A stretch of DNA of 64,000 nt from NCBI GenBank assembly GCA_024233545.1, contig JACKPL010000004.1, positions 153,391-217,390 of the forward strand, given 5' to 3'. Shown here one piece after another: positions 1-30,090 of this stretch (the stretch's first letter is position 1; every line of letters begins with the position of its first letter). This stretch comes from a bacterium. GTDB taxonomy: Bacteria; Auribacterota; Auribacteria; Auribacterales; Auribacteraceae. Position numbers and translations under genes: made by a program. Under the pieces are notes generated by a model. That model did no database searches, had not been told where the DNA came from, and saw nothing but the letters and a program-made list of their open reading frames with translations.

Positions 1-1085
1 CCGCATAATCTGGTAACGGCTGCTGAATTCAGTTATCGATTCCACTGTCACGCCGTCGTCGCCGTAACTCGTTACCGTGACGATGTTGCCGCATTGCCGC
101 TCGGCTACTGACGATACCTTCTGTCTCGCCGGACTTCTTATGGATTCTTGTTATCGCCCGCATATCCCACCGATACGAACCGTCATGTTGGCACAACAAT
201 ACCGTACTCTCAACTACATTCGCAGGAACTTTATAGTCAACCAACGTGCCAAATAACGTCATCAACGCAGACAAACGGCCTCGCTTGTCGCTCACCTGCA
301 ACTTCGTATCGCCGCAGCGTCGTTATCTATGGGCACTGCGTCGCCGTATAATCTGGTAACGGCCACAGTTGAACTCAGTTATCGATTCCACCGTCACGCT
401 GCCGCGCCGTAACTCGTTAATGTGATTGATGTTTCGGCATTGTCAAGTTCAGCTACTGACGATACCTTCTCGTCTTCGCCGGACTCTTTTCTATAATTCT
501 TGTTATCAGTTCATATCCCCACCGATACGAACCGTCATACACAACAATACCTCAACTACATTCGCAGGAACTTTTATATCAACCAACGTGCCAGTCAACG
601 TCATCAACGCAGCAGACAAACGGCCTGTCGCTCACTCTGCACCTGTATCGCCGTCATTATCTATAATGCCGCTGCATAATCTGGCAACGCCAGTTGAACT
701 TCAGTTATCGACCACCGTCACGCCGTCGTTTCGTAACTCGTTACCGTGACGATGTTGCCGGCATTGTCAAGCTCAGCTACCGACGATACCTTCGTCTCGC
801 CGGACTCTTTCTGCGCATTCTTGTTATCGTCTACATATCCCCACCGATACGAACCGTCATACACAAATACCGTACTCTCAACTACATTCGCAGGAACTTT
901 ATAGTCGACTAACGTGCCAGTCAACGTCATCAACGCAGACAAACGGCCTTCGTTGTCGCTCACCTGCACCGTATCGCCGTCGTTATCTATAATTCGTGTC
1001 GCCGTATAATCAGGCAACGGCCAGTTGAACTCAGTTATCGATTCCACCGTCACGCCGTCGTCAGCAAATGTCGTGATAGTAATAA
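1..1085. repeat. At least three near-identical tandem DNA repeats of about 330-345 bp, running off the window start. Recurring motif ...cgtataatctggtaacggcc...ccaccgtcacgcc...gtaactcgtta... begins near 1, 345, 674 and 1004, with a diverged copy beyond about 1085. The repeats encode the ~110-aa C-terminal module of the RHS/TSP3 protein. The copies at 1-717 lie beyond the stop and carry indels.
   Basis: Direct alignment of the sequence against itself. The minus-strand translation of each copy gives ...VQVSD(N/K)(E)GRLSALMTL(T/F)GTLVDYKVPANVVESTV..., and the 90-aa ORF at 29-301 is a frame-broken copy. Confidence 0.85.
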
Positions 1086-3660
1086 AATTGCCATCATTAT
1101 CTAATTCAGCAATCGATGATAATTTTGTTTCCCCCGTTTCATGGAATTGATTTTTATTGTCATCGACATAACCTGCACGTAAATTCGTATCATATTCAAA
1201 AACTGTACTTTCTTCAACTTGCCCAGGATCAGTATAATCGCCAAAAGGTGACGTTAGTGTCTGCAATGCGACAAGCTGGCTATTAAAATCGATGACTTGA
1301 ATAGTTGATTTACCCTCGGGCTGATTTACCTGACGGGAAGTAAGGTATCCGAACAACGGTTTGTTAAATTCAGTGATCGATTCAATTGTTGTGCCATCGG
1401 GAGCAAATGAAGTTAAATTGATTAAATCACCAAAATTATCAAGTTCAGCGATTTCATCCTTTAATGTTTCACCTCCATCGAGTATGCCATTGGTATTTGT
1501 ATCGACATACCCCGTACGGAAATTTTGTTTGGTATCATTATCGAAACTATATTGATATACAGTACTCTCGAGAACAGTGTCGTCAGGGGCTATTTCCTGT
1601 AATAAAACGAGGCGAGATTGAGCATCAAAAACCTGAAGGAGTTCGCTTCCGTCCGGCCGTAAACTATGGTTAGTGACAAACCCCTCTTGAGGCTTATCGA
1701 ATTCTGCAATATTTACCGGATTAAGGCTGTCATCAAATGTTGTAATATTAATTAAACTGTTATCGATTGAATCAAGTATGGCACGTGAACGCAATAATCC
1801 CGTTACCGGATGATTAAGCCGTTCTCTTCGAATTAACCGCCCAACATTTGTAGGATCGGTTCCGTAGGAAAAGTAACTGACCGTTTGGGTGCCGGTATCA
1901 TTATCAAAAGAAGTTTGTTCGGTTAAACGTCCATTTAAAGAGAATAAAGACCTTACTTCATCGCCTGTCAACCCATTATGTGTCGTTTGAGTATTGAGAT
2001 TACCGTTGGGATAAAATCGCTGGATAGTAAAACCATCGCCCCGAGCGGCAGATTCATCAATAGTGATAGAAGAAAGTACACCGCTTCCATCAAACTTTTG
2101 AATGGTGAGATCGCCATCACGAGGTGTATCAAACGCAGTGATTGAAATCAAATTCTGATTACTAGACAAAACTGCGCGTGCTATTGGAGAATCTTCAGGG
2201 TCTTTGACACCATCACCATCCACATCATTGTATTCGGTACGAATTTCGCCACCCACGTTTCCAGAATCATTGTCAGGAAGGTATTCAAACAACGTGCGCG
2301 TCCCCGGTTCTTGAAGAGCGCCATTGATAAATAATTTTATTGTTTGAGTTATAAGGTTGTCATCATTATCAAATACTTGAATTGTTTGGTTGCCGTCAGG
2401 ATCGGTTGAAGTAACTCTTCTACTTCCATCGGGAAAATTTTGTACTTGAGACGCGCTTCCACCGGATGCAATTGTTTCTAACACGTTTCCTTCGTTATCA
2501 TAAATAGTGAGAGTACCGCTTTCATCGATTACAGTACGGTCTTTTTTGGGAATAGTTACATTAAAATTATTTGTTTCAAGATCAATTTCAAAACTGGTTG
2601 GATCGGCATCCGCAAGACCATCACCATCAGTATCATTTCTGAATTGATCGGGGATTCCATCGTTATCCGTGTCTATGCCCTGCCCATCAGGCACGCCATC
2701 ACCATCAACGTCAATACCCCATATGCCGGTTTCATTGTCATAGAAAGCATCAGTGATGCCGTCATTATTCAAATCGACTTCTTGATAACCGGTTTGGATT
2801 TGTTTAAATATCTCCAGACTGATATTCCCTTGCGCATTATTATTTGTTACCGCATAAAACTCAGGGGTTACTAAACCTTGGATTGTCAAATCAGGGTCGT
2901 CTTGCCGCCCTTGACTGGTTTCATAAACATATGTTCTGATACTAGTTAACGTAATTTGAAATTCGGCGGTATATTCGACTCCAAACTGATAACCAGTAAC
3001 AACGTCAATGGATTGAGTGCCTTCATCAATGACACCATCTTCTTCTCGATAAAAACTATATACAAGCTTTAAATCGCCATTCTGGGTACTGAGAGACAAC
3101 AAGTTTTCCGTATAAATATATCCGCCGCCCGGTTTTGTTACACTGCTTATGTCTTCAAAACCAGTGTTAAAAAATGTAGAATCGTTTTCGAGGGTAAACC
3201 GCACTTTATAACGCGGCAATTCGCTTCGATCCGCTAAATCTATGCGCAAGGATTCATCAATCGTTATGACTTCCTCGAGTCCATAAGACGTTTGATTCTG
3301 ATCATTATTTCCGTTACCTGCACCTTCTTGTCCAGCTCCTGGAATGTCGTTGTCACCTTCGGTTTGAAAGAAAGGATTCTCGGGGCCAATATTGATGGGA
3401 GGGGGAACGGAGGGCATAAAAGGGGTTTCTTCGACATTCTCTCCATTACCAGAGAAATCTGTTTCTCCACTGGGGAGATCAAGCTCTTTGGGCAACGGGT
3501 CGTTTGTAGGATCAGGCGATTGCGCCCAAATGAGAGTATTCTGCCCAAATAGTATTGATTCTATCATCAGAAAAACTACAATTCGTTTCCAAACTGAGCG
3601 TTTTCTGCTGAAAAACCAACTACCAATGTCCAATGTAACATTTGTTTGAGGGTTCATCAT
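718..3660 (-). CDS. Secreted repeat protein of 980 aa. It has an N-terminal signal/anchor segment, thrombospondin-type-3-like calcium-binding Asp repeats (DxDxDG/NDTDGDG, encoded around 2590-2790), and many degenerate YD/RHS-like repeats (xQVFDxxxxL, TIYDNEGNVL, VSDNEGRL). No C-terminal toxin domain and no PxxxxDPxGL motif were seen.
   Basis: ORF translation. Motifs: DLNNDGITDAFYDNETGIWGIDVDGDGVPDGQGIDTDNDGIPDQFRNDTDGDGLADAD, plus repeated ~110-aa modules ending the protein. A hydrophobic segment IVVFLMIESILFGQNTLIWAQS follows the N-terminal charged region. Confidence 0.7.
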   Translation of the reverse strand: MMNPQTNVTLDIGSWFFSRKRSVWKRIVVFLMIESILFGQNTLIWAQSPDPTNDPLPKELDLPSGETDFSGNGENVEETPFMPSVPPPINIGPENPFFQTEGDNDIPGAGQEGAGNGNNDQNQTSYGLEEVITIDESLRIDLADRSELPRYKVRFTLENDSTFFNTGFEDISSVTKPGGGYIYTENLLSLSTQNGDLKLVYSFYREEDGVIDEGTQSIDVVTGYQFGVEYTAEFQITLTSIRTYVYETSQGRQDDPDLTIQGLVTPEFYAVTNNNAQGNISLEIFKQIQTGYQEVDLNNDGITDAFYDNETGIWGIDVDGDGVPDGQGIDTDNDGIPDQFRNDTDGDGLADADPTSFEIDLETNNFNVTIPKKDRTVIDESGTLTIYDNEGNVLETIASGGSASQVQNFPDGSRRVTSTDPDGNQTIQVFDNDDNLITQTIKLFINGALQEPGTRTLFEYLPDNDSGNVGGEIRTEYNDVDGDGVKDPEDSPIARAVLSSNQNLISITAFDTPRDGDLTIQKFDGSGVLSSITIDESAARGDGFTIQRFYPNGNLNTQTTHNGLTGDEVRSLFSLNGRLTEQTSFDNDTGTQTVSYFSYGTDPTNVGRLIRRERLNHPVTGLLRSRAILDSIDNSLINITTFDDSLNPVNIAEFDKPQEGFVTNHSLRPDGSELLQVFDAQSRLVLLQEIAPDDTVLESTVYQYSFDNDTKQNFRTGYVDTNTNGILDGGETLKDEIAELDNFGDLINLTSFAPDGTTIESITEFNKPLFGYLTSRQVNQPEGKSTIQVIDFNSQLVALQTLTSPFGDYTDPGQVEESTVFEYDTNLRAGYVDDNKNQFHETGETKLSSIAELDNDGNFITITTFADDGVTVESITEFNWPLPDYTATRIIDNDGDTVQVSDNEGRLSALMTLTGTLVDYKVPANVVESTVFVYDGSYRWGYVDDNKNAQKESGETKVSSVAELDNAGNIVTVTSYETTA

Positions 3661-4091
3661 TTTTCCTTCCGGTTATAAGTGGATTTTTCTTATATAAACT
3701 ATGGTAAAATCAATCATTAAAAACAACACGAAAGGGGCCTTCAGTGTTTTACATACACCTCTGACCCTCATATTTTTTTATGAATTCCTTTCACAAAAAA
3801 TATTTCTTTAAAACTTTATAAGGTTGAGTAACTTATGTATTTAAAGTATACTCTATTTTTTTTAAAATTTCAATCTTCTGAAATCTTAAAACGGCATATA
3901 ATTACATTATTATATTATATACAACATATTTTAATGGTTAAAATTACACAAAAAGTTATTTAAAAGATAAATTAGTATAAAAATTTCTTTTTAGAACAAT
4001 GCATGAGTTATCTAATATAATCGGACGGGTAAGAATAAAAAATGAGAATAAAATACTTCTCTAGACAAAGTATAATATTCTCTAAAGTAGT
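3661..4091 (-). promoter_or_regulatory. Intergenic region of 430 bp, extremely AT-rich (long A/T runs, ATATTATAT-type tracts), between the rpe stop and the RHS/TSP3 gene start. Probable promoter/regulatory region for the 718-3660 gene and 3' UTR of the rpe operon.
   Basis: Base composition and position only. No specific -35/-10 call is attempted. Confidence 0.35.
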
Positions 4092-4758: not shown

Positions 4759-6024
4759 TTAAAAATGGAAAATTGATCTCAGCCGAGATTCGTTTTTTAA
4801 AGGGCTTATAATCGACATATTCAACCTTTCGTTAGTAAATAATGCATTACTGACCCTTAACAAATCTTCCGCAGAAACTTTAGTAATTTGCTCAAGAATT
4901 TCATCAATTGACTGCACTTGCTTTTGGGTAAGAAGCGTTTCTCCTAACCACATCATTATATTCATTGTTTTTTCCAAGCCCAATGAGAGTTGGCCAATAG
5001 TATACTGCTTTGCCCTATCCAATTCTTCTTTAGGAACTAATTCGGTTTTAAGATTTTTAAGTACCGAAAGAATTATCTTGATGGTTTTTTCTGTTGATTT
5101 AGGGTCGGTCCCTGCAGAAATCACCACTGCTCCGGTATCAATGAATCGTTCGACAGAAGAATGAATCGAATAAGCCAAACCATGTTTTTCCCTGACTTCT
5201 TGGAAAAGGCGAGAACTCATATTTTCGCCTAAAACCGTATTTAAAACCTTAAGAATGTATCTATCGGGATGTGTGCGAGAGTAAGCCCTTATTCCCATTG
5301 CGATATGTGACTGTTCCGTATCTTTAGAAAGCAACTTAATCTCAGGGGCACTTTGTTTTTCTATCACTGCATCGGAAACTGGCACTGGATAATGCGAGCA
5401 TGTTGTGCTTAAACATTGGCAAATAGTCTCCACAACAGAATCATGTTTGATGTTGCCTGCTACAGAAACAACAATATTACTTAACGTATACAGCCGTTCT
5501 TTATATTCAACGAGCTGTCGATTGGTAACTGCATCTACGGTATCTACGGTACCAATCAACATTTTTCCGAGAGGTTGACCGGGCCATAGTACCTCGCTCA
5601 ATATGTCGTGGACATATTGAGCGGGCAAATCGACATACATCATTATCTCTTCTTTAATCACGGGCTTTTCTTTTTCAATGTGCTCATCGGAAAAAGTCAC
5701 ATTTGATGCCATGTCCCACAAGACATCAAACGTATGGGCAAAATGTTCGGCAAGTACTCGCGCATAATAGCACGTATACTCTTCACCAGTGAATGCGTTG
5801 AGAGCTCCGCCGATTCCTTCTATTGCTTCCGTAATTTCTTTTCCGGAACGTTTTTCGGTGCCTTTAAAAACGAGGTGTTCTATAAAATGAGAGATGCCGC
5901 TTAATGCGGGTGTTTCATACCTGCCCCCTGCACCAATCCAAATTCCAACAGACACAGAATTCATGTGAGGCATTTCGTAACTAACTATTTTTAATCCATT
6001 TTCGAGGGTTTTAATGTGCCTCAT
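4759..6024 (-). CDS. M16-family (pitrilysin/insulinase-like) zinc metallopeptidase
   Basis: 421 aa. Inverted zinc-binding motif HFIEHLVFKGT (HxxEH) near the N-terminus, and the length typical of bacterial M16 peptidases. Confidence 0.8.
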   Translation of the reverse strand: MRHIKTLENGLKIVSYEMPHMNSVSVGIWIGAGGRYETPALSGISHFIEHLVFKGTEKRSGKEITEAIEGIGGALNAFTGEEYTCYYARVLAEHFAHTFDVLWDMASNVTFSDEHIEKEKPVIKEEIMMYVDLPAQYVHDILSEVLWPGQPLGKMLIGTVDTVDAVTNRQLVEYKERLYTLSNIVVSVAGNIKHDSVVETICQCLSTTCSHYPVPVSDAVIEKQSAPEIKLLSKDTEQSHIAMGIRAYSRTHPDRYILKVLNTVLGENMSSRLFQEVREKHGLAYSIHSSVERFIDTGAVVISAGTDPKSTEKTIKIILSVLKNLKTELVPKEELDRAKQYTIGQLSLGLEKTMNIMMWLGETLLTQKQVQSIDEILEQITKVSAEDLLRVSNALFTNERLNMSIISPLKNESRLRSIFHF

Positions 6025-6040
6025 AGTACATAATCCTTTT

Positions 6041-6454
6041 TTAGCGTAAACTATCTAAATATGACTGCAACAGCAACTGTGCCGCCATCGAATCAATAAC
6101 TTTTTTGCGTTTTTTACGAGAGACATCCGCCTGCAATAATACTTTATTTGCCTGAATTGTAGTTAACCGTTCATCCCATAACTCAATCTGTATAGGAATC
6201 GCCTGTCTGCACGCATCGGCAAAACCCATTGTTTTTTGGCTTCGTTCTCCTAGTGTTCCGTTCATGTTCTTTGGAAGACCGATTACTATGCAAGTAATTT
6301 GGTATTCATCGACTAATGAACGTAGCTTTAAAAGAATAGAATCTATTTTATCATTCTGAATAAACGCCAATGGGCTTGCAATGAGAGCTGTTGGATCGCT
6401 TAAAGCTACTCCAATTCGTGCATCGCCATAATCTATGCCTAAAAAACGCGCCAT
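6041..6454 (-). CDS. ruvX: Holliday-junction resolvase-like protein RuvX (YqgF), pre-16S rRNA nuclease
   Basis: 137 aa. N-terminus MARFLGIDYGDARIGVALSD matches the YqgF/RuvX signature (LGxDxGxxxIGVAxSD). Confidence 0.85.
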   Translation of the reverse strand: MARFLGIDYGDARIGVALSDPTALIASPLAFIQNDKIDSILLKLRSLVDEYQITCIVIGLPKNMNGTLGERSQKTMGFADACRQAIPIQIELWDERLTTIQANKVLLQADVSRKKRKKVIDSMAAQLLLQSYLDSLR

Positions 6455-7561
6455 TTATAGATATCTCTTAAAATCAGGATTGCCGTCAAGGATTTGTACA
6501 ATCTTTTTTACGTCTTGCGCATTATTCTTATTGCATACCAAAACGGCATCATCGGTAACAACCACAATTAAATCTTTAATTCCTACTCCGGCAAGAATTT
6601 TCTTATCAGAAACCATCAAACAATTATCAATTTCATGCGCAATACAGTTCCCCTTCAGAACATTGCCTCTTTCATCGTTGGGAAAATGTTTTGCTACGGA
6701 ATCCCATGCTCCAACATCATCCCAATCGAACGTACTTTTGGCACATACGACATTACCCGCCTTCTCCATAATACCATAGTCAATTGAAATATTTTGCATC
6801 GAAGGATAGCATTCACCAATACATTTTTGAATTTCTTCGGCATTTCGCGAACTAAAAGCATTTACAAACCGATGATAAGCATTATAGATGTCAGGCAGAT
6901 AGCGCTGAAGGTCGCGCACAAACACTTCCGACCTCCACACAAACATTCCGCTATTCCATAAATATTCGCCGGATTTTAAATATCTTTCTGCAATTTCATG
7001 CATCGGTTTTTCTTTAAAACTTTTTACCGTAAAGAATTCTGTTTCACTTTGACTTTTTTGCCGCTCACCACAATGAATATACCCATACCCTGTCGAAGGA
7101 AAATGAGGTTCAATCCCGATAGTAAACAATGCGTCTTCACTGACAGCATAAGATATGACGTCTTCCAAGGTTCGAGTAAATGATGCCGTCTGGTGAATAA
7201 CATGATCTGCCGGCAAAACCACCATTACTGCATGGGGGTTTTGAACACTGCAATATGCGGCGGCAAGAGCAATACACGGCGCGGTATTTCGCCCGCATGG
7301 TTCTCCAATGATATTTTCGCCTATAAACTCAGGTAGTACCGCTTTAATAGCAGGAACTTGAGATTGGTTTGCAACAATAATCATATTTTCAATCGGCACA
7401 ATCGAGTTGATTCGATTAACCGTTTCTTCAAGCATGGTTTTATCTGAAACTATCGGCAATAATTGTTTCGGAGTATCAATGCGGCTTTTCGGCCAAAACC
7501 GTTCGCCTCTGCCGCCAGCCATAATTACAACAAAAACATTTTTATCCATAATAACTGCCAT
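6455..7561 (-). CDS. Mannose-1-phosphate guanylyltransferase (GDP-mannose pyrophosphorylase), short form without a PMI domain
   Basis: 368 aa. Nucleotidyltransferase motif VIMAGGRGERFWPKSRIDTPKQLLPI. Its start is adjacent to the ruvX stop (6454/6455). Confidence 0.8.
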   Translation of the reverse strand: MAVIMDKNVFVVIMAGGRGERFWPKSRIDTPKQLLPIVSDKTMLEETVNRINSIVPIENMIIVANQSQVPAIKAVLPEFIGENIIGEPCGRNTAPCIALAAAYCSVQNPHAVMVVLPADHVIHQTASFTRTLEDVISYAVSEDALFTIGIEPHFPSTGYGYIHCGERQKSQSETEFFTVKSFKEKPMHEIAERYLKSGEYLWNSGMFVWRSEVFVRDLQRYLPDIYNAYHRFVNAFSSRNAEEIQKCIGECYPSMQNISIDYGIMEKAGNVVCAKSTFDWDDVGAWDSVAKHFPNDERGNVLKGNCIAHEIDNCLMVSDKKILAGVGIKDLIVVVTDDAVLVCNKNNAQDVKKIVQILDGNPDFKRYL

Positions 7562-10194: not shown

Positions 10195-10993
10195 ACCCAA
10201 GAACCCCAAAAATTTCATCGAACTGCTTGCCAATATCATCAGCCTGCATGAGACTTTCACCAATCAGGAGAGCATCAACATTTAATGAATTTAGATATAC
10301 GACATCACGAGCTGTTTGTATCCCGCTTTCGCTAACCGAAATTATTCCTCGGGGAATTTTTTCTAACAGCCGTTCCGTAGTCTGTAAATCAACAGAAAAC
10401 GTACGTAGGTCTCTATTGTTTATTCCAATGACGTCAACATGATCAAGAGCCAGTACTTTTTTTAAATCAGTATCATCGTGAATTTCAACAATATAACCCA
10501 TTTGAAAAGAATCACATAGTTGAATAAAATCATTCAGCTGTTTCGCAGAGAGAACAGAGGCTATAAGCAGAACTGCTCGGGCTCCCGCGATAAGTGCTTC
10601 TTTAATATGATACGCATCGATGGTAAAATCTTTACGCAATATCGGAATAGTGAGAGTCTTTGATAACTCTCTGATATAGTCTAATGAGCCGTGAAAAAAC
10701 TGCTCGTCTGTTAGGATAGAAATAGCATTAACTTTCTTTTCAACATATACTTGGGCAATCTCTTCATAATTGAAATTTTTTCGGATAATACCTTTTGAAG
10801 GCGATGCTTTTTTAATTTCAGCAATGATTTTAATCGGTTTATTGTTTTCTCGTTGAATAGCTGTTTTAAATATATTTTTTTTATACCTAAGGGACTGTTG
10901 ATCAATACATTGATCAAGCGTTCTTTCAGGATTGGTTTGTTTTCGGGTGGACAACTCCTGTTTTTTCACCTCTATAATTTTATCGAGAATCAT
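10181..10993 (-). CDS. trpC: Indole-3-glycerol phosphate synthase
   Basis: 270 aa. ILDKIIEVKKQEL...IIAEIKKASPSKG...ISILTDEQFFHGS are classic IGPS motifs. Confidence 0.9.
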   Translation of the reverse strand: MILDKIIEVKKQELSTRKQTNPERTLDQCIDQQSLRYKKNIFKTAIQRENNKPIKIIAEIKKASPSKGIIRKNFNYEEIAQVYVEKKVNAISILTDEQFFHGSLDYIRELSKTLTIPILRKDFTIDAYHIKEALIAGARAVLLIASVLSAKQLNDFIQLCDSFQMGYIVEIHDDTDLKKVLALDHVDVIGINNRDLRTFSVDLQTTERLLEKIPRGIISVSESGIQTARDVVYLNSLNVDALLIGESLMQADDIGKQFDEIFGVLGYGTC

Positions 10994-11363
10994 TTTATGT
11001 GATGCTCCGGTATCTTCTATAATACATCTTTTGTCTCAAGCAAGTATAAACGGAAAGAAAACAAATACGCAAAGCTGAAACCGAACAATAACCCCTTTAA
11101 AGATCACTGTATAAATTCCTATGGCTGAGCAAAAATCATCGTTCAAGAATTTAAGTGCTTTCTAAAATAGAAATATATCCAAACCGTTACACTTTTCAAA
11201 AAGCACTATTATAACAAAGTTTACTAAAAAATCAATCGGAATGAACATTCTTCGCTGAAAGGAATGAAAACAGGAAAAAATCTTGAAAAGTATATTGTAA
11301 GACTATCAAAGCTTCAGGCACTTTTTTTATTAAAAAATTATTTATTGGGCGAAGAATGGTGTT

Positions 11364-11696
11364 TTAGTCCCACTTACTAAAAATGAAGAAAACCGATCCG
11401 ATCATCAAGGCAAATCCCATAATATAATTCCATTTCAAACCTTCTTTTAAATAAAAAATGGAAAAAAGGCAAAATATAGTAAGCGTAATAACCTCCTGAA
11501 TTGTTTTTAACTGCGCGGCTGAAAAGTATCCATGCCCAATACGGTTAGCGGGCACTTGAAAACAATATTCAAAAAAGGCGATACCCCAACTTGTTATAAT
11601 AACAATCCAAAGAGGAGACTCTTTGTACTTTAAGTGTCCATACCAAGCAAAAGTCATAAAAATATTAGAAATTATTAAAAGAATTACTGTATACAC
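11364..11696 (-). CDS. Small DMT-superfamily membrane protein (DUF486-like), 110 aa, probably 4 transmembrane helices
   Basis: FAWYGHLKY motif and a hydrophobic profile. Its start codon overlaps the stop of the upstream permease (ATGA-type overlap at 11696). Confidence 0.6.
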   Translation of the reverse strand: MYTVILLIISNIFMTFAWYGHLKYKESPLWIVIITSWGIAFFEYCFQVPANRIGHGYFSAAQLKTIQEVITLTIFCLFSIFYLKEGLKWNYIMGFALMIGSVFFIFSKWD

Positions 11697-13369
11697 TACT
11701 CATCACCTGATTGCATAACTATGTTCGATGAATGTAACAACGCTTTGTCAATATTTTGCAGAATATTATCTTTCCCGACAAGTTCAACAATACCGGATTT
11801 CTCTAATTTATCAACAAGGTACTGCTTGATACCTGATAAAATAATGACAATATTCGATTTCTTGGACTGGAGAACAACTTGCCGCAACACATGCAAAGCA
11901 GTCGCATCAATACTCGAAACATGACGCATTCGCAATATTCGAACTTTCGGATTATTCTCCACATTACTCATGGTCTCCATAAATGTAGAGGCCACACCGA
12001 AAAAAAACGGACCGTTAATTTCGTACACTTCTACCCCAATTGGTATAACTTTTTTATTTAAAGCATCAGGATCATCCGGTTCATCACGGTCTTCTTCATC
12101 GAGGTATACTCCCTTTATCTCGTTAATACTTGTACATAATGACAAGCGATGAATAAATAACAATGCCGCAAGAACAATCCCTATCTCAATAGCAACAGTT
12201 AAATCAAAAACGATAGTAAGCACAAAAGTCATTATTAAAACAATTGCATCATTGCGCGGCGCTTTGAGAATCATACCAAACGAATGCCATTCACCCATAC
12301 GATATGCCACAATGACGAGTATTCCCGCTAAACAAGAAAGAGGAATTAAAGATGCCCACTTCCCAAACAGAATCATTATCAACAGCAAAGTTACAACATG
12401 AACTATTCCTGCGACAGGAGTCCTTCCTCCGCTATGGACATTTGTTGCCGTCCTCGCGATCGCTCCTGTTGCAGGAATACCGCCAAATAGCGGCGATACA
12501 ATATTTGCAACGCCTTGCGCCACAAGTTCCATATTCGATCGATGTTTTCCTCCAATCATACCATCGGCAACAACAGCCGATAGAAGCGATTCTATGCCGG
12601 CAAGCAATGCAATCGTAAATGCCGCTCTTAAAAGACTATGCAGTGAATATATATCTAAGGATGGCAATTTTGGCAGGGGAATTTTATCAGGAATTGCTCC
12701 AAAACGAGTTCCGATTGTTTCAACAGGAATATCAAACCAATATACCACTAATGTTGTAAACACAATTGCAATAAAAGAACCGGGGAGCTTTCGGGAAATT
12801 CTCTTTGTAAAGAGAATAATAAAAATGGTACTGAGTGCAATTCCCAATGCAAAAGGATTCATCGTTGGAAAATTAAGAAAAAATAACCGCCATTTTTCAA
12901 AAAATTCTGCTGGGACTTCTCCCATATTAAGTCCTAAAAAATCTTTAATTTGCGAAGAAAAAATAATAACCGCAATGCCTGAAGTAAATCCAATTACAAC
13001 AGGGTAAGGAATAAACTTAATTGCCGATCCCAATCGGGCAAATCCCAATATACATAGAATTATGCCTCCTAAAAACGTTGCTATAAGAAGGCCCTCGGTA
13101 CCATATTCTTGAACAATATTATAGACTATTACAACAAATGCCCCTGTCGGCCCGCCAATTTGTACCCTGCTTCCCCCTAACACAGAAATAATAAAACCTG
13201 CTATTATAGCAGTGACTAACCCTTTATCAGGAGAAACACCGGAAGCAATTGCAAAAGCAATACACAAAGGCAATGCTACAATCCCAACAATGACTCCAGC
13301 AATGAAATCTCCTTTAAACAGTGTCCATGAATAATCTTTAAGTGTATCAAACAATTTTGGTTTTAACAT
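11696..13369 (-). CDS. SulP-family anion (sulfate/bicarbonate) permease with a C-terminal STAS domain
   Basis: 557 aa. N-terminal GDFIAGVIVGIVALPLCIAFAIASGVSP and multiple TM segments. The C-terminal ~120 aa is a soluble STAS-like domain. Confidence 0.85.
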   Translation of the reverse strand: MLKPKLFDTLKDYSWTLFKGDFIAGVIVGIVALPLCIAFAIASGVSPDKGLVTAIIAGFIISVLGGSRVQIGGPTGAFVVIVYNIVQEYGTEGLLIATFLGGIILCILGFARLGSAIKFIPYPVVIGFTSGIAVIIFSSQIKDFLGLNMGEVPAEFFEKWRLFFLNFPTMNPFALGIALSTIFIILFTKRISRKLPGSFIAIVFTTLVVYWFDIPVETIGTRFGAIPDKIPLPKLPSLDIYSLHSLLRAAFTIALLAGIESLLSAVVADGMIGGKHRSNMELVAQGVANIVSPLFGGIPATGAIARTATNVHSGGRTPVAGIVHVVTLLLIMILFGKWASLIPLSCLAGILVIVAYRMGEWHSFGMILKAPRNDAIVLIMTFVLTIVFDLTVAIEIGIVLAALLFIHRLSLCTSINEIKGVYLDEEDRDEPDDPDALNKKVIPIGVEVYEINGPFFFGVASTFMETMSNVENNPKVRILRMRHVSSIDATALHVLRQVVLQSKKSNIVIILSGIKQYLVDKLEKSGIVELVGKDNILQNIDKALLHSSNIVMQSGDE

Positions 13370-13404
13370 ATTTTACTAACTTTTTGGTTGTATAAGTTCA
13401 CTAC

Positions 13405-13436
13405 GATAAAAGGCGAACCAAATAGGTTCGCCTTGA
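13405..13436 (-). terminator. Hairpin downstream of tRNA-His on the minus strand. It is a 10-bp stem (AAGGCGAACC/GGTTCGCCTT) with a 5-nt loop, followed by UUUUAU.
   Basis: The inverted repeat at 13410-13434 can be read directly. The U-tract is short. Confidence 0.5.
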
Positions 13437-13444
13437 TTTCAAAG

Positions 13445-13520
13445 GGTGAGTGAGCGGGTTCGAACCGCCGACCTTCTGGGCCACAACCAGACGCTCTAAC
13501 CAACTGAGCTACACCCACCG
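13445..13520 (-). tRNA. tRNA-His (anticodon GUG) with a genomically encoded G-1 paired to discriminator C
   Basis: The reverse complement folds as a cloverleaf: G + GTGGGTG / TA / GCTC AGTTGGTTA GAGC / G / TCTGG TTGTGGC CCAGA / AGGTC / GGCGG TTCGAAC CCGCT / CACTCAC / C. The anticodon loop is TTGTGGC and the acceptor stem has one G-U pair. CCA is not encoded. Confidence 0.9.
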
Positions 13521-13596
13521 CAAATTTTCCAAACATATTACATAAAGAATCATAATAACTCAATAAAATTCTTATATGCATCTCCGTAATATAAAT

Positions 13597-13630
13597 AAAA
13601 CAGGGGCATATTTATTATGCCCCTGTTTTA
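13597..13630. terminator. Bidirectional rho-independent terminator: AAAA-ACAGGGGCATA-TTTAT-TATGCCCCTGT-TTTA. It is a perfect 11-bp stem with an A-tract on one side and a T-tract on the other. It lies 26 nt past the stop of the giant gene (13656).
   Basis: Perfect inverted repeat read directly from the sequence, with flanking A/T runs in both orientations. Confidence 0.75.
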
Positions 13631-13655
13631 TTACAGCACTTAATGCCGGTTTTTA

Positions 13656-16600
13656 TTACTTGACTTTTATATACAATGGTTTCGATACTGCACTATTTCC
13701 GCTACGATCATACGCTTTGACCTCAACTTTTATCAATTCGCTGTTCGTATCTTTTGGAATCATATATGAGTATGCAAAAGTACCGACCTCACTATCGATT
13801 TGATAAACGCTTTCGTCATTCGCAAAAACTTCCACTTTTATAACACCTGCTGAATCATAAAAATCAACGAGCAGGTAGAGTGTCGTACCGGGTAAGTATC
13901 CATCAGCAAAACGAGCTGAACTTCCCGTAGAAATAACGCTTACATAAGGAGCATGTTTCTCAGCAACTACATCTCTGTCCCAATTAACATTATCGACCAT
14001 AATGGCTCCTTCAGCCTCATTATTAAATACTGTAAGGCTAATAGTACTATTGGAACCGGCATATTCTGCAACTGGAACGGAGAATCGCTTTGCTAGAGCT
14101 ACGATTTCTACCGCATCGTTGCTGGAAGCAGATGTCAACTCTACATCACCGCTATTGATTTTGACCATCATTTTTAGTGGGCCGTCAATGTCAATAGCAG
14201 AAGTATTAGTAATTGATACATAATAATCCATCGTTGAATTTGCCCGGTTGAAATGCCCTATTCGCTGTACAACGTTAAGCATCGGATCAATGATAGCTCT
14301 TTCACCCTCAACTTCACCTTCAATATTCATACTAAAATCAAACCGAACGCCAGCATTCAGCTTAAACGAAAGAAGGAATGTTACAGCCTCGCCACTATCC
14401 AATGCCGAATTAATAATAATATACGGATCAAGCAAAACGCCTGTTGTCTCAAGCTTACTATCGACCACAACAAACTCTTCTTGCCCGCCATTCGAACCCG
14501 CAAGATGAACAATGACTTTCGGTTCTTTAGATAAGCGCACTTCGCTATCCATCAGATATGACACATCAAATAATAGGTATCTTGATTCAGCCGGAACAAT
14601 AGCGTCATTGAGCCGCAAATACCCGTTTCCGTTAATCAAAGCGGAATAATTTCCTTCGATTGCTGATAAAGTATTGTACTCCCTAACAACGGATACTTGT
14701 CCTTCATATGCGAATCCTTCCAATGTCCCCGATTCAAATCCACCATTAATAATCGGCGGCACTTCTTGAACCTCATTTGAAGTACTGTCATCGTCACCCG
14801 GGGATAAATCCCCTTCACCGCCACCGCCACTTGTAATGGCAAATGGCATATGAGCATATAAGTTATCGTAATAATAATACTGAGGCCATTGATACAGTGC
14901 CCACAAATCAGTATCAATTTCTAAGTCAAACGCATGAATCTCATAATCTGATAATTCATATATGTTATTATAGAATAAAAATGTCGATTGAATACTTTCA
15001 ATTGAACTGCCCGGAAATTCCATATTTTCCGCATAGTATTTTATTACATACTTGTAATACCGCGACAGCTCGTATTCTCGGGTCAGCAACGTTTCAAACG
15101 TATCAACGACGGTGTCAGTACTATCATAGAATGTACCGTATACCTTTAAATAAATACCATAATTATAATAGGTAAGTTCCAAACGTACGGCATCAGCAAT
15201 ATTACCACCGTATCCGCCATAACCACCGTATCCGCCATAACCGCCTAATCCCAACTCATCATTGCCATCGCCAGGACCAAAAGTCAATGGACCACCGCCA
15301 TAACCACCATAACCACCCATATTCAGATCGATATAAATAACACCGGAATCCTCAAAATAAGTGATCTCCCTATATCCTAATGCATCATGCTGGATATATC
15401 CATATCCGCCATATAAAGCCATACTGAAGTAATACCCTCCACGATATGACCATCCGACATTCTCTATTCCCGGATTGATTCCATTGGTATCGATCATTTC
15501 CATATATTCTGAATAGAGTACATGTACTTCGTCGCCAATAACTTTCAGTGCACCATTGACAGTAAACTGACCATTCTGTCCGCTTAATATTTCATCAGAT
15601 GCAACAATATCATTCGTGCTTACCGGGAAACCGGACGGAATAATAGACAATGGTGTTAACCTCATGAGGAACAGTTTAAAGCTATAGACTTGTGTATCAT
15701 ATCGCGTGTAGAGAACAACCAATTCATTTTCATTATCGAATTCGCATTCAAGAGCGGTAAAATATGAACTCGTCCTACTTTGATTGTTAAATGATTGAAT
15801 CATACTCGTATCAATCATTGTTTCGCCGGTTGTTCCATTGATCATTTTGTAATACACTTCATAAATACTCGACGTGTTCGGATAACGAGTCCACACAGCA
15901 TGCACATTGCCATCGTTGTCAACCGCAATATCCAAAGCTTTCATGTATGCATAAGAAGAAGAAATCGATGTATCGGAATACAACGTCATTTCAGGGATAA
16001 GAACATTGCCGTCGTTATCTAATTTCGTATATTTAATACTCGCAAGATATGCGTTTCGATTATCTTCAATCCATGCAATATGCGCATTATCCGAATCATC
16101 AACATCAATTCGTGCACAATAATTGTAGGATATCGGATTACCGAGCCCGCCAGCATCCATGGCATTGAGAACCGTTGTGTTCGTAATGATCTCATTATCA
16201 ACGTCAACAACAACATGTTGCACATCGGGATCATAGAATAATGTATACACAAAATGCTGTCGGTCTCCGCTATCTTTGTCCGAATCAATTTGCTTCAATT
16301 TATAGCTCTGATAATAACTGAAATAGGACTCTAATTTCGTCTCAATTGGCATCGTACCATCATTATCTAAGAAGAAATAGGACAGATGCGGGCCTCCAGT
16401 TTGATCTTCATGTATCATTAACGTTCCAACGCCATTGCCTGAACGTTCAATAACCATTTGATAATACCGTTCACTTCCTGTAGTAGGTATTACAACCTGA
16501 TGGTAATCATCAGACTCAATTGTCTCATCTGTTCCGTCGATAAGAACTTCTATAACATCGGGAACGAATCCTGTCGAATCGGTATTGATATTTGCCGGAT

Positions 16601-17390
16601 TTAACCCGAAAGCTAATTCGTCGGCATCGGGTATACCATTCAAATTATTGTCAGACTGGAATGTTCCTTGAGCAACAAGCGCACCACCTTGCAAACTTAC
16701 CGTAAAAACAATAGATCCGAAATAGTTCAGATTACGTATGATGTACGGCTGTCCATCATTGAAATAAGTACCTTGTGCTTCATTATCCATTGTAACAATC
16801 ATCTGGCCTGATACATCATTGGTAATATCAATTCTCTTCCCATCCTGATACACACCGATAACTGAGAAACGCGCCCGATCATAAATCAGTGCATTAGCCG
16901 GTTCAATTTCGATAGATGAAATAGGAATAACCGTAACAGTAACCATCGAAGAAACTGTTGAATTTTGTGAAAGATCATAGGCAGTCGCCTCAAATTGATT
17001 ATTAGGATCGCCAAGTAGCGGTGTCGTAAAATAGCCAATATATGGTGCGTTAGAATCAAGAACACCATAATGGCCGATCCAATAAATAAGCATATGATCG
17101 ATTGCAAAATTATCTTCGGCTGTTGCCTCCATAATAATATCATCACCTGCATAAACCGGTCCTTCATTTATGGAGAAAACCTGTACATTATGCGGCGGCA
17201 CAGGATCCGGCTCAATAACTACGGTAACAGCTGTACTATTATATACATTCCCTGATAAATCAAAGGCATGTACTTCAATTATTGAATTGGTAATGCTTGA
17301 CACTGGAGGGAATATAGCATTAACAAAATATTGACCGCTATCATTACGAACCGCTACCGCATCATTATCGATGATCAGTTCGATAGTCAT
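13656..17390 (-). CDS. Giant-gene segment 5 (C-terminal), 1244 aa. It contains Ig-like (Big) domains, a CBM4_9-like NGGFE module (about 14250-14760) and a Gly-Tyr low-complexity linker. It ends in an Ig-like domain with no recognisable sorting signal. It has no signal peptide, and its ATG lies only 11 nt after the previous segment's stop, so it is probably a frame-shifted continuation.
   Basis: ORF translation. Ig-like patterns (A.D..GN.S......V.V) recur throughout. The frame opens at 17408, only 4 nt before the upstream segment's stop. Confidence 0.8.
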   Translation of the reverse strand: MTIELIIDNDAVAVRNDSGQYFVNAIFPPVSSITNSIIEVHAFDLSGNVYNSTAVTVVIEPDPVPPHNVQVFSINEGPVYAGDDIIMEATAEDNFAIDHMLIYWIGHYGVLDSNAPYIGYFTTPLLGDPNNQFEATAYDLSQNSTVSSMVTVTVIPISSIEIEPANALIYDRARFSVIGVYQDGKRIDITNDVSGQMIVTMDNEAQGTYFNDGQPYIIRNLNYFGSIVFTVSLQGGALVAQGTFQSDNNLNGIPDADELAFGLNPANINTDSTGFVPDVIEVLIDGTDETIESDDYHQVVIPTTGSERYYQMVIERSGNGVGTLMIHEDQTGGPHLSYFFLDNDGTMPIETKLESYFSYYQSYKLKQIDSDKDSGDRQHFVYTLFYDPDVQHVVVDVDNEIITNTTVLNAMDAGGLGNPISYNYCARIDVDDSDNAHIAWIEDNRNAYLASIKYTKLDNDGNVLIPEMTLYSDTSISSSYAYMKALDIAVDNDGNVHAVWTRYPNTSSIYEVYYKMINGTTGETMIDTSMIQSFNNQSRTSSYFTALECEFDNENELVVLYTRYDTQVYSFKLFLMRLTPLSIIPSGFPVSTNDIVASDEILSGQNGQFTVNGALKVIGDEVHVLYSEYMEMIDTNGINPGIENVGWSYRGGYYFSMALYGGYGYIQHDALGYREITYFEDSGVIYIDLNMGGYGGYGGGPLTFGPGDGNDELGLGGYGGYGGYGGYGGNIADAVRLELTYYNYGIYLKVYGTFYDSTDTVVDTFETLLTREYELSRYYKYVIKYYAENMEFPGSSIESIQSTFLFYNNIYELSDYEIHAFDLEIDTDLWALYQWPQYYYYDNLYAHMPFAITSGGGGEGDLSPGDDDSTSNEVQEVPPIINGGFESGTLEGFAYEGQVSVVREYNTLSAIEGNYSALINGNGYLRLNDAIVPAESRYLLFDVSYLMDSEVRLSKEPKVIVHLAGSNGGQEEFVVVDSKLETTGVLLDPYIIINSALDSGEAVTFLLSFKLNAGVRFDFSMNIEGEVEGERAIIDPMLNVVQRIGHFNRANSTMDYYVSITNTSAIDIDGPLKMMVKINSGDVELTSASSNDAVEIVALAKRFSVPVAEYAGSNSTISLTVFNNEAEGAIMVDNVNWDRDVVAEKHAPYVSVISTGSSARFADGYLPGTTLYLLVDFYDSAGVIKVEVFANDESVYQIDSEVGTFAYSYMIPKDTNSELIKVEVKAYDRSGNSAVSKPLYIKVK
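15190..15330 (-). repeat. Low-complexity Gly-Tyr repeat (GGYGGYGGGPLTFGPGDGNDELGLGGYGGYGGYGGYGG) inside giant-gene segment 5
   Basis: Plus-strand repeats of accaccgtatccgccataacc. Confidence 0.8.
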
Positions 17391-17401
17391 GTTATCGCCC
17401 G

Positions 17402-20400
17402 TTACGCGTCAAATGGGATCAATACGGAGCTTTCGCCGCCAATATAATGGCGGTCATTGATATCAGCCGGTAAATCCAGTTCGACTGTTGGAGCGCCTCC
17501 AAGATCATGATATATATTCACAATCGCCGCTTCTCCCGATTGAACAATCAGTTGATTGCCATAAATATAGCAATCGGTAATCTGATATTCAATTGGTACA
17601 TTAGTAAATTGAGAAACAGAACCAAGTACTATTTCCGAACCCAGAGAGGATGTATCAAGGAAAAACACATCGTTCATACCATGTATAACCGTAAAATCGC
17701 CAATTGAATCAATACCCATAGGCATTTCTCCATCCAAATCGTCTATGAGAATGAAAGCTGGCGTACCAAAACTTAATGGCGTTTGGGTAATTCCTACTGA
17801 GAACAACCCACCGATTTCGTCTGTCGCATATAAGACGGAATCTTTAACTTCCAAATCGCCAAAATCCGGTAATGGAGCTTCTGGAGCAGGTGTATAAAGC
17901 GTAATTGTCTGCAACAGTTCAAGGTTATCCAGTTCATACACATGAATTTGTCCCCTGCGGGTCAAGCGGTATAGATTGTCTTCAGTTGCTTCCAACGCAA
18001 GTGTCCCGCTGTCATTGTCCTCTATTCCCGGCAATACTACAGGCGAATTCGGGAACCGTACATTGAGTACCCACACACCATCGTCATGGCCGACATATGC
18101 CCGATCGCCATTAAGCAATATAACGCCTTCACGGTTCTCTATCGTTTCATCATCCAACTGAATCTGCGCCTTAAGATTGAAATCATACGGATCGAAGCTA
18201 GCGCCCATTACAATAAATTGCGTAGATGACCAGCCGCTATAAGTGCCGACACCGTAGATAAAGCCATTTTCGACAACAAAATGATACAATGAATAAGGAT
18301 TTGCAGTCGAAGTATATACCAACCTATTCGCTGTTGATATTCTCGGCACGTTTCCAAGGAACGAAAGCTCGCTACCTGCAAACTCAAGTTCCCCGCCAAT
18401 ACCTGTTTCACCTACACCAGACTCACCTTCTCCCCCTCCACCGGGTATAAGCGAACTAATATCATATACTTCTAGAATCTGATACGAGGTAATATATAGT
18501 TTATCGTCAAGAACATACGTATCATAGACGTCGCGATCATCATATCCGGCAGTCGGCTCTGCTTCAAAGAGCAGATTAACTTGTACCGATATCTTACTTG
18601 AACGATTGCCGGCATAATCCTGAGCAATTACTCCAACAGTCATTGGATCAGAATAGACGTTTACCGGTATAACAATCGGACGGTCAAATGTTCCGTCTTC
18701 TTCCGGTGAAAGAACATCAATGATATCGTTATCGAAGTAGATTTCAATAATCTCAACCATGGATTGTGTCCCGGAATTATCCGTTGACACCCCTATAACA
18801 TCTACCCACGATCCGCCGATTACCGTTTGTCCGGCAATAGGTTCGGTCATGGTTACAGCAGGAGCTTCAGTATCATCAAGTATGGTTATTGCAATCTTAT
18901 CGCTTCGTCCGATATTACCGAACATATCTTTCGCCCGAACCTCGATAGTTAACACATCGGAAGCACCATCAATGATCGGCAACCTCTTAAGAATGGTAAG
19001 CGACGACTGGCCATTGGCATTTATCGTTTCAGCCTTGATATTATTGTAGAACATTTCAATAGCATCAATGTTTTCATCAACTGCAGATATTTGTATAGAT
19101 AATAAATGCCCTTCAAAATACGATTCATTATCAAGCGGCGAGACGATCGTAACAACCGGCACAGCAACATCCGGCAACAATTTATTGATTCTGCCGAATA
19201 CCGCAACAGGGCCTGCAACACTATTCTGCGCGACAACCGTTCCGGTTTCCACATCAATTTTTGCAATGAGATTATCCGCTTTTGAAAACACAAACAATGC
19301 ATTCTCGATTGTATCAAACTGTAATCTATCCGGTGATGGCACAGACCATGAATCCACTTCATTCAGTGTTGTCGGGTCGAATACCAGAATAGTGTCATTA
19401 TCCGGCAGAGCGGCAAGTATCCGTTCTGAGCCGGAGATAACAACCGATTCAATACTCGATATCTCAGAATCAACTGTTCTAAATAATCCAGCCGCTGATG
19501 TAAACGGGCCAGTATCAATTCTTGCTATCTCATATTGGTTTGCAGACTGATAAAAGCGTCCGACATACAAGATATTACCTGCCTGATTCAGATTAATCGC
19601 TGTTCCTCTGTATGCACTTGCAGATGTAAAACCTGTTAATGATCCGTTTCCTGTAGTCAGGTCATAGTTGGTAATACGAGAACACCAATAACTTGGATGT
19701 GACCCATCCTCATACCCATATTCCGCAATATATATTCTTCCATCAGGTGCGGTTACCGTACCTCGAGCACCCCTGATATACTGGTAGCCATACGGAGATG
19801 TAGACGGTGAATCGATATTCATTACCGTAACATAATCAAATGGATATTCAGGGAATAACAACGCAAACAACTGTGAGTTTTGTTCAGCCAACTCTACAGT
19901 TTGCGTGCGGAAATACTGGTTGCCGGTTCGATAGCTGAATACCTGTGCATTAAAATCAACCATTCCAAGTTGTTCACGCTCGCTTTGCGTATCATACATC
20001 GCGATAAACAACTGATCGCGTTGTTGATGATATTTTGCATCGGTTGCGACAAAATTAACTCCGGTTGATATTCCTAAATCTCCCGCTATCAAGGTATTGG
20101 TATCTAAATCAAATAGAGCGCCAGCATTATTGACCATCAAAAGTTGATTATAGTCGCTTCGAACGACTGTCAAAGCCACAGAATCAGACGTCATTAACCC
20201 TGCATAGTCAACTGCAATAACCTCAATTGTCGCCGATGCTTCAAGCGCATCTTCCTCAATCGGAATTGATGTTTGGTAAGGAGCTCCTCCAAGGTTGAGA
20301 TAGGCTTCGGTTCCTAAGAATTTTACAGGAACTCCATTATACAACACTTGGACAAATTTAATGTTATCGGTGGCATCACTTATTTCGACATTAAGTACGA

Positions 20401-29644: not shown

Positions 29645-30090
29645 TTAGCATCCCATACAGCAATACCGGTTAGCGTTGAGTTGCTCGAAACAAATGCAAT
29701 ATCGCCGATTGATAACAGACCGCCCCATTGATAATTGTGTCCTGATGGGGATTCGGTATCAACCCATGATCCCGTAGCAGTAGCGCTTGCGCCTCGCGCA
29801 TCAGCAACAGCTATCCGGCTACTTCCTACAACCAACACATAGTCGCTATCTAACGCCTGCAGATACCGAGTATAGTAATAATAACTATTGTTCAACCAGT
29901 TATTTGTCGTTCCTGACAGCGTTTCGACATCAGAAATATCTGCATTTAACAATGAGAAATACGGATTGGAATACTCACCTGTCCAATATGCCATATTGCC
30001 TTCCAACCATACACCAAATGCATAATATGAGCTGGTTTTACTGCTGTAGTATTTCGCTCGCCGACATAACGGTAAGACAACGTAGGCACG
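29645..30090 (-). CDS. Giant-gene bridging segment 3, in the third reading frame (track ORF 29518-30006, 162 aa, starting at TTG). It carries protein-like LVIVD-type sequence and connects segment 2 to segment 4 through two frame changes.
   Basis: The frame-C translation is ...YAFGVWLEGNMAYWTGEYSNPYFSLLNADISDVETL...DSDYVLVVGSSRIAVADARGAS...IAFVSSNSTLTGIAVWDAK. It is protein-like precisely where the flanking ORFs' own frames turn into non-domain-like text. Confidence 0.65.

Follow-up and report, generated by a model that had tools for sequence, protein, structure and literature searches.

The TGA codon at positions 718–720 of the stretch of DNA analysed here (64,000 nucleotides, hereafter the window), together with the seemingly decayed repeat copies that follow it, is very probably an artefact of assembly or polishing. 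With comparable confidence, the 980-aa product that appears to end at this codon can be regarded as a truncated misreading that covers just the 5' portion of a far longer gene. The array of ~330-bp units at window positions 1–1061, which encode near-identical 110-aa modules, is real; it would be the opening section of an in-frame array that is probably far longer and is embedded in a giant all-beta repeat protein secreted by an Auribacterota-like bacterium. The host organism is related to Candidatus Auribacterota; its TrpB is 70% identical to TrpB of an Auribacterota metagenome-assembled genome (MAG), in which the gene lies in the same neighbourhood.

Tandem Repeats Finder detects one tandem array at window 1–1061, with a period of 326, 3.2 copies, 80% matches and 12% indels. 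In register, the copies start at positions 3, 346, 674 and 1004, which agrees with the original prediction of tandem copies near 1004, 674, 345 and 1. The predicted identity of about 90% or more is similar to that found but slightly generous: gapped pairwise alignment gives 291 of 330 and 296 of 333 matching columns from copy to copy (88–89%), and the term "near-identical" therefore overstates the sequence as written. The array locus contains a single long ORF (718..3660, minus strand, 980 aa), which, except for its start codon, is the same as NCBI MCP5462441.1 (H7A34_04585) on a 232,180-bp contig. Its N-terminus is a basic and hydrophobic stretch (residues 1–47, ...KRIVVFLMIESILFGQNTLIWAQ; 3520..3660, minus strand), which is kept in relatives and which, judged by eye, looks like a secretion signal or anchor. 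Farther along the protein lies a cluster of Asp-rich motifs of the DxDxDG type, also recognised by eye (residues 296–352; 2605..2775, minus strand), that presumably bind calcium. Two diverged modules of 110–113 aa (EFDKPQEG... and EFNKPLFG...; 1062..1704, minus strand) are in frame and have a host-like GC3 of ~0.30.

The first unit of the array (unit 1; 736..1061, minus strand) is also in frame, and it is the array's sole clean unit in the window. The first deviation is a frameshift at 732..737 on the minus strand, where the sequence reads TACGAAA-CGACGGCG while other unit junctions have TACGGCGACGACGGCG; the change consists of a 1-nt loss plus other alterations. This frameshift brings the TGA at 718–720 (minus strand) into frame. 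The stop lies within ACGACGGCGTGACGGTGG, which is an out-of-frame DDGVTVES sequence, as the same string at 1040–1061, one unit upstream, is read in frame as DDGVTVES. Thus, both the predicted position of the stop within this string and its predicted origin by an indel are borne out. Unit 2 (406..731, minus strand) differs from unit 1 by 18 substitutions and 21–23 indel events of 1–5 nt, and unit 3 (63..405, minus strand) by 20–22 substitutions and 16–18 indel events. On the 3' side of the stop, module sequence carries on to position 1, switching among all three frames; in particular, the peptide QVSDKRGRLSALMTLFGTLVDYKVPANVVESTV is found in another frame of unit 3, so the expectation of recognisable but frameshifted module sequence past the stop was correct. 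The ORF at 29–301 (H7A34_04580, P0006), which overlaps unit 3, is a by-product of the frameshifts.

A fourth unit starts within 1..62 (minus strand) and leaves the window, with at least one further unit junction beyond it. This junction (...GNIVTVTSYGDDGVTVESIT / LPDYTATRIIDNDGDTVQV...) is frameshifted, is absent from the window and is found in H7A34_04575 (P0007), a neighbouring ORF on the 232,180-bp contig. The array therefore extends past the window start, as had been anticipated, and the window start is not the contig end. Both P0006 and P0007 were recovered by a module search. The contig therefore carries at least five to six units.

The differences between the units are unusual in kind. 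When in-frame unit 1 (736–1061) is taken as the reference, units 2 and 3 together show 40 substitutions and 41 indel events, the latter comprising 19 deletions and 22 insertions, 1–5 nt in size. No indel is common to units 2 and 3, each being private to one unit, and several substitutions are common to both. Third codon positions take 24 of the 40 substitutions (60%; binomial p = 5e-4). Projected on the reference frame, the changed codons comprise 16 synonymous and 14 non-synonymous changes, and several of the non-synonymous changes adjoin indels. A homopolymer or short repeat adjoins only 14 of the 41 indel events; such noise is closer to the raw error of single reads than to the homopolymer errors typically left in polished assemblies. 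Where the frame survives, the P0007 protein is identical to unit 1 over LPDYTATRIIDNDGDTVQV and GNIVTVTSYGDDGVTVESIT. The onset of the noise lies 326 bp into the array.

As a family control, clean and naturally diverged units from the arrays of two relatives (contigs L003 and L004) were compared with their consensus. The 24 clean L003 units contain 180 substitutions and the 16 clean L004 units 106, with 0 indels in either set, and the two naturally diverged terminal units of L004 add 95 substitutions and 2 indel events (a 2-nt deletion and a 2-nt insertion). Natural unit variation thus totals 381 substitutions to 2 indel events, compared with 40 to 41 in the window; against the clean L003 units alone (180:0), the window differs with a Fisher p of 1.6e-25. 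The third-position bias indicates that the substitutions arose under coding constraint, and such constraint in DNA with approx. 20 frameshifts per unit does not fit pseudogene decay. Units 2 and 3 fit a description as functional, slightly different units overlaid with random indel noise.

The main alternative is true decay, in which the frameshift is genuine and cuts the gene short behind unit 1, leaving the units downstream as pseudogene remnants that gather mutations. This is how the deposited sequence reads, the NCBI annotation treats the pieces as individual small ORFs, and the original prediction likewise took the downstream copies for decayed remnants of a "recently longer" array. Nevertheless, the explanation is unlikely, and the earlier interpretation is opposed by the error spectrum, by the privacy of the indels and by the codon-position bias. 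A decaying pseudogene is expected to show an even spread over codon positions, an excess of substitutions and a deletion bias, and none of these is found. Bacterial mutation spectra have an indel:substitution ratio of roughly 1:10 or lower, and the family's own natural unit variation stands at 2:381, whereas the ratio in the window is ~1:1 without deletion bias. What is found is a set of private, random and small indels in a zone where short reads cannot be placed uniquely, with clean unique flanks, as in a patch of sequencing errors.

The suspicion, voiced in the original prediction, that near-identical repeats had caused an assembly problem was well founded. In the artefact explanation, short reads used for polishing would be uniquely placeable no farther into the array than roughly the length of one read or insert, and deeper units would keep the raw long-read consensus. 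Only the first ~326 bp of the array would have been corrected, and positions 1–735 and onward would be uncorrected long-read-type sequence. The first random error would have produced the TGA at 718–720, and later errors the apparently "decayed" copies. The true gene would contain more in-frame units (to judge from relatives, over 10), followed by diverged modules and by the conserved C-terminal region, ~870 aa long; for this contig, the rest of the gene is predicted from the architecture of relatives. We infer from the error pattern that the sequencing technology of this MAG was of the long-read type and that polishing followed. The MAG series may stem from a hybrid study with nanopore and Illumina data. 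A contig built from short reads alone would leave the indel-rich artefact hard to explain.

The unique sequence of the window is argued to be accurate by an uninterrupted ORF of 9,635 aa (28.9 kb) located elsewhere in it. In addition, the window has an intact run of ORFs whose sizes and order agree with a gene block of relatives that comprises rpe, an M16 peptidase gene, ruvX, a nucleotidyl-transferase gene and trpA/B/F/C. Inspection of the giant-ORF junctions at 17390/17402, 29518–30006 and 35078/35090 for frameshift errors gave no sign of errors outside the array, and the junctions at 17390/17402 and 35078/35090 are ordinary gene boundaries with double stops. A search of the window for other repeats of ≥150 nt, as an independent sign of long reads, returned none.

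The protein family is rare, with 24 proteins at E ≤ 1e-3 among 1.84 billion representatives. Profile searches of metagenome contigs, using either a module alignment or a full-length alignment, yielded no relative, nor did a genome-contig search with a single protein, but a genome-contig search with the full-length alignment did retrieve relatives. The contig searches turned up no further assembly of this species, and the protein search returned no homolog of the C-terminal region from the window's MAG. The family proteins begin with a signal-like segment, followed by a domain that carries the Asp-rich motifs, by diverged modules and by the near-identical array; beyond the array, diverged modules appear again and lead to the conserved C-terminal region. 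In relatives, the gene runs through many in-frame units into ~1,400 further residues, and the 980-aa product of the window is without everything past the first array unit.

The C-terminal region is ~870 aa long, ends in GTRFGxEYA[VI]K[NT]P, is 43–59% identical between lineages and has no match in Pfam or NCBIfam. It is encoded at 2040–4655 of contig L009, at 14076–16700 of L003 and at about 1700–4243 of L008, and on all three contigs it lies beside purC. The closest syntenic relative is represented by the short-read contigs L001 and L005 (k141 naming), both of which stop at the equivalent of window ~1075, the array beginning at 1061. L009, from the same sample as L001, opens with 1.5 identical units, whose translation overlaps the relative P0002 over its final 41 residues (YVYDGDYRWGYVDTNKNGLKDVTETLLESVAEFDNEGNIV). 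From these units the frame of L009 stays open through diverged modules to the end of the C-terminal region, 1,550 aa in total, and purC follows; the C-terminal region of L009 is 59% identical over 882 residues to the L003 ORF at 14076–16700. In P0011, encoded on L008, modules and the C-terminal region (43% identical) form one continuous ORF of 1,411 aa. The conservation of this region speaks against truncation as the usual condition of the gene, which also weighs against true decay.

Two long-read-style contigs enter the array more deeply. L003 (ENA contig ctg9550l) carries at least 37 units, most of them spaced exactly 333 bp apart, and at least 24 of its units are clean, each being exactly 333 bp long. 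A noisy patch at 10523–14076 covers the final five to six units together with the diverged modules that follow. The patch contains +1 insertions only, 50 of 52 of which extend a homopolymer, with 0 deletions and unchanged substitution counts, and biological decay cannot be its cause. Single insertions also occur near 6790 and 10030, and the insertions in L003 break up a giant ORF, which is annotated as fragments of 4,216, 1,096, 199, 71 and 52 aa. The L003 array additionally has a higher-order period of 4,549 bp, consisting of an AT-rich spacer of ~600 bp and 12 units.

In L004 (Auribacterota contig_1, 1.18 Mb), 16 units are clean, being 336 bp long and free of indels, and 11 in-frame 336-bp units precede a flip in orientation. 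The array changes strand at 16254 for 17.7 units and returns at 22223. Small indels cluster at these flips, GC skew reverses there, and the ORF ends just past the first one. The flips could be a fold-back or mis-assembly artefact or, alternatively, a real inversion within the array. Stop-free antisense frames are also present in L004 (12540–16400 on the minus strand and 16742–20785 on the plus strand; ORFs of 476, 801 and 1,347 aa) and are probably a by-product of the codon composition of the unit. Within the L003 and L004 arrays, DNA identity between units is 94–96%. Array copy number differs by lineage, with minimum values of 37, 11 and 5–6.

Another contig, L002 (also L006, QZJZ01000024.1, of Candidatus Auribacter fodinae SURF_26), contains Illumina TruSeq adapter read-through at 11795–11867, followed by poly-A; the sequence at the contig end is AGATCGGAAGAGCACACGTCTGAACTCCAGTCAC...ATCTCGTATGCCGTCTTCTGCTTG-like. 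This adapter contamination accounts for the apparent stop of the 597-aa homolog P0003.

Every family assembly that enters the array has an ORF that ends within it, which is compatible with true decay, and the breaks in three assemblies could also be read as a family tendency to real truncation. However, the three assemblies break in three unrelated ways and at differing depths, which indicates that the array is conserved and the truncation is not.

The same breaks bear on the possibility that the out-of-frame units are real and functional. It can be proposed that the downstream units form a reservoir of silent cassettes that recombine with the expressed unit or units and thereby generate phase or antigenic variation of a surface protein. 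Near-identical tandem units suit recombination, the protein looks secreted or surface-located, and ORFs end within the array in several assemblies. Known systems of this kind, however, diversify by substitutions and not by dozens of random 1–5-nt indels; the type and position of the break differ per assembly, matching assembler-specific error types; and the arrays of relatives stay in frame over clean units that number from 11 to at least 24. Silent cassettes of this conventional kind are thus highly improbable. A slightly wider version, in which the frameshifted units are real and constitute a cassette reservoir produced by an unusually indel-prone process, switching, truncating or varying the giant surface protein by recombination, is only marginally less so and is still very unlikely.

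At position 1061, GC content rises abruptly from ~39% to ~50%. The rise is confined to GC3: unit 1 of the window (736–1061) has 0.61 and the diverged modules have 0.30 (Fisher p = 2e-9), and neither GC1 nor GC2 changes. An array-specific rise in GC3 is observed in four lineages relative to diverged modules and neighbouring genes, in which GC3 is 0.23–0.43; GC1 and GC2 stay the same in the other three lineages as well. In particular, array GC3 is 0.45 in L003 (18–10032) compared with 0.23–0.36 elsewhere in the locus, 0.45 in L004 (12593–16250) compared with 0.34–0.36, and 0.53 in L009 (3–515) compared with 0.34–0.43. GC-biased gene conversion, acting while the units evolve in concert and are homogenised, may have left this rise as its footprint. 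A chimera, in which the assembler joined a homologous repeat of a higher-GC organism at ~1061, would account for the abrupt jump, and chimeric contigs are common in long-read metagenome assemblies (10.1101/2025.04.22.649783), but such a join is scarcely credible and was rejected because the array-specific GC3 rise recurs in three other lineages; moreover, reading frame and module register are unbroken across 1061, the array shares a contig with the unique N-terminal part in L004, and array units share one with the unique C-terminal part in L009.

The protein had been labelled "RHS/TSP3" in the original prediction, a label that the family models do not support. In a Pfam scan, the window protein passes only one family model, DUF2963 (PF11178), and is accordingly a member of this family. 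The match reaches 39.2 bits (gathering cut-off 22.6; E = 4.4e-10) and spans residues 737–767, which fall within the diverged modules at 1062..1704. Among relatives, the array piece of L003 reaches 135 bits over 8 stretches, and P0002 reaches 24.2 bits. In contrast, TIGR01643 (YD_repeat_2x) scores 12.4 bits in the window protein, below its cut-off of 15.8, and neither PF05593 (RHS_repeat) nor TSP_3 (PF02412) gives a match to it at E ≤ 0.1; in P0002, PF05593 scores 14.5 bits against a cut-off of 22. A regular-expression search for the Rhs-core motif DPxG[LWI] returned 0 matches in the window protein, P0002, P0010, P0011, P0016, P0008, P0009 and P0014, and the PxxxxDPxGL core motif and toxin tip are absent from the window protein and from the complete C-termini of relatives. 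A phmmer search against PDB sequences and an NCBIfam scan gave nothing above threshold. To our knowledge, DUF2963 has no known function. The repeat described by the model is ~52 residues long and spans just part of the 110-aa module of the present family. DUF2963 has been listed among families without known structure (PMC8078820).

An AlphaFold2 model of three modules predicts beta-hairpins throughout, at low confidence (pLDDT 59.5). The top Foldseek matches of this model are Rhs cores and teneurin YD shells, with E ~4e-6 but a TM of only 0.09–0.17 for a model of that pLDDT. Its best matches, with a TM of ~0.15, also include OspA single-layer sheets, and the fold matches as a whole are weak. 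The modules resemble RHS/YD proteins (Rhs, TcC, teneurin) in being short beta-hairpin units with turns of the "DNEGN" type, and a JGI source labels the relative P0011 a "YD repeat-containing protein". They differ from these proteins in that RHS_repeat and YD_repeat_2x remain below cut-off and in that the DPxGL motif and toxin tip are lacking. "YD-like beta-hairpin repeat" is a fair name for the probable fold, but the protein does not qualify as a member of the Rhs family.

Large bacterial surface proteins with tandem repeats that are near-identical at the DNA level include adhesins of the alpha C/Rib, Esp and Bap types. The present family resembles them in its in-frame units of hundreds of bp, 94–96% identical in L003 and L004, in its secretion-signal-like N-terminus and in a copy number that differs between lineages. 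Near-identical in-frame DNA units of this sort are present in L003 and L004, and in the window only unit 1 is clean. The family is set apart from such adhesins by its all-beta, DUF2963-type unit of 110–112 aa, by its uncultured Auribacterota-like host and by the conserved ~870-aa C-terminal region without a family match. Variation in module number among strains is plausible.

Errors of assembly comparable to that proposed for the window are on record: in long-read or hybrid assemblies, indel errors that fragment genes give rise to false pseudogenes. In metaFlye and metaMDBG assemblies, unsupported indels and false or inverted repeats have been documented (bioRxiv 10.1101/2025.04.22.649783), and errors that fragment genes are described in another report (PMC12007338). 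The window shares with indel errors of this class the small random indels that split one ORF into a truncated product and small "hypothetical proteins", as well as the restriction of errors to sequence beyond the reach of short-read polishing. It differs in that the patch is confined to a tandem array and has the density of raw reads, with ~12% differences per unit; residual errors of polished assemblies are usually sparse and linked to homopolymers.

The finding is mainly a warning for annotation. MCP5462441.1 (980 aa), MCP5462439.1 (P0007) and H7A34_04580 (P0006) are most likely fragments of one misread giant gene, and family, pseudogene or genome-decay statistics that use these three entries would mislead. 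Moreover, the analysis provides a cheap, read-free test of noise versus decay for repeat arrays, based on the indel:substitution ratio, codon-position bias, indel privacy and noise onset. It also outlines a rare family of giant secreted proteins whose arrays contain between 11 and at least 37 identical modules, with a raised GC3 in the homogenised units, and the module arrays break every short-read assembly examined.

Several further features of the locus were observed. Very large ORFs of 1,244, 4,060, 1,710 and at least 9,635 aa occupy 13656–63997 on the minus strand, the last of them leaving the window end; in L001, the gene at the place of these giant ORFs is called as a single 20,204-aa product. 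A U32 peptidase gene, which lies in the M16 peptidase–ruvX interval of L001, L002 and L004, is missing at window 6024–6455, as judged from ORF sizes and order, and at this site a 421-aa ORF is directly followed by a 137-aa ORF. The intergenic region upstream of the repeat gene (3661–4091) has a GC content of 16–26%, and equally AT-rich regions precede the homologs on L001, L002 and L004.
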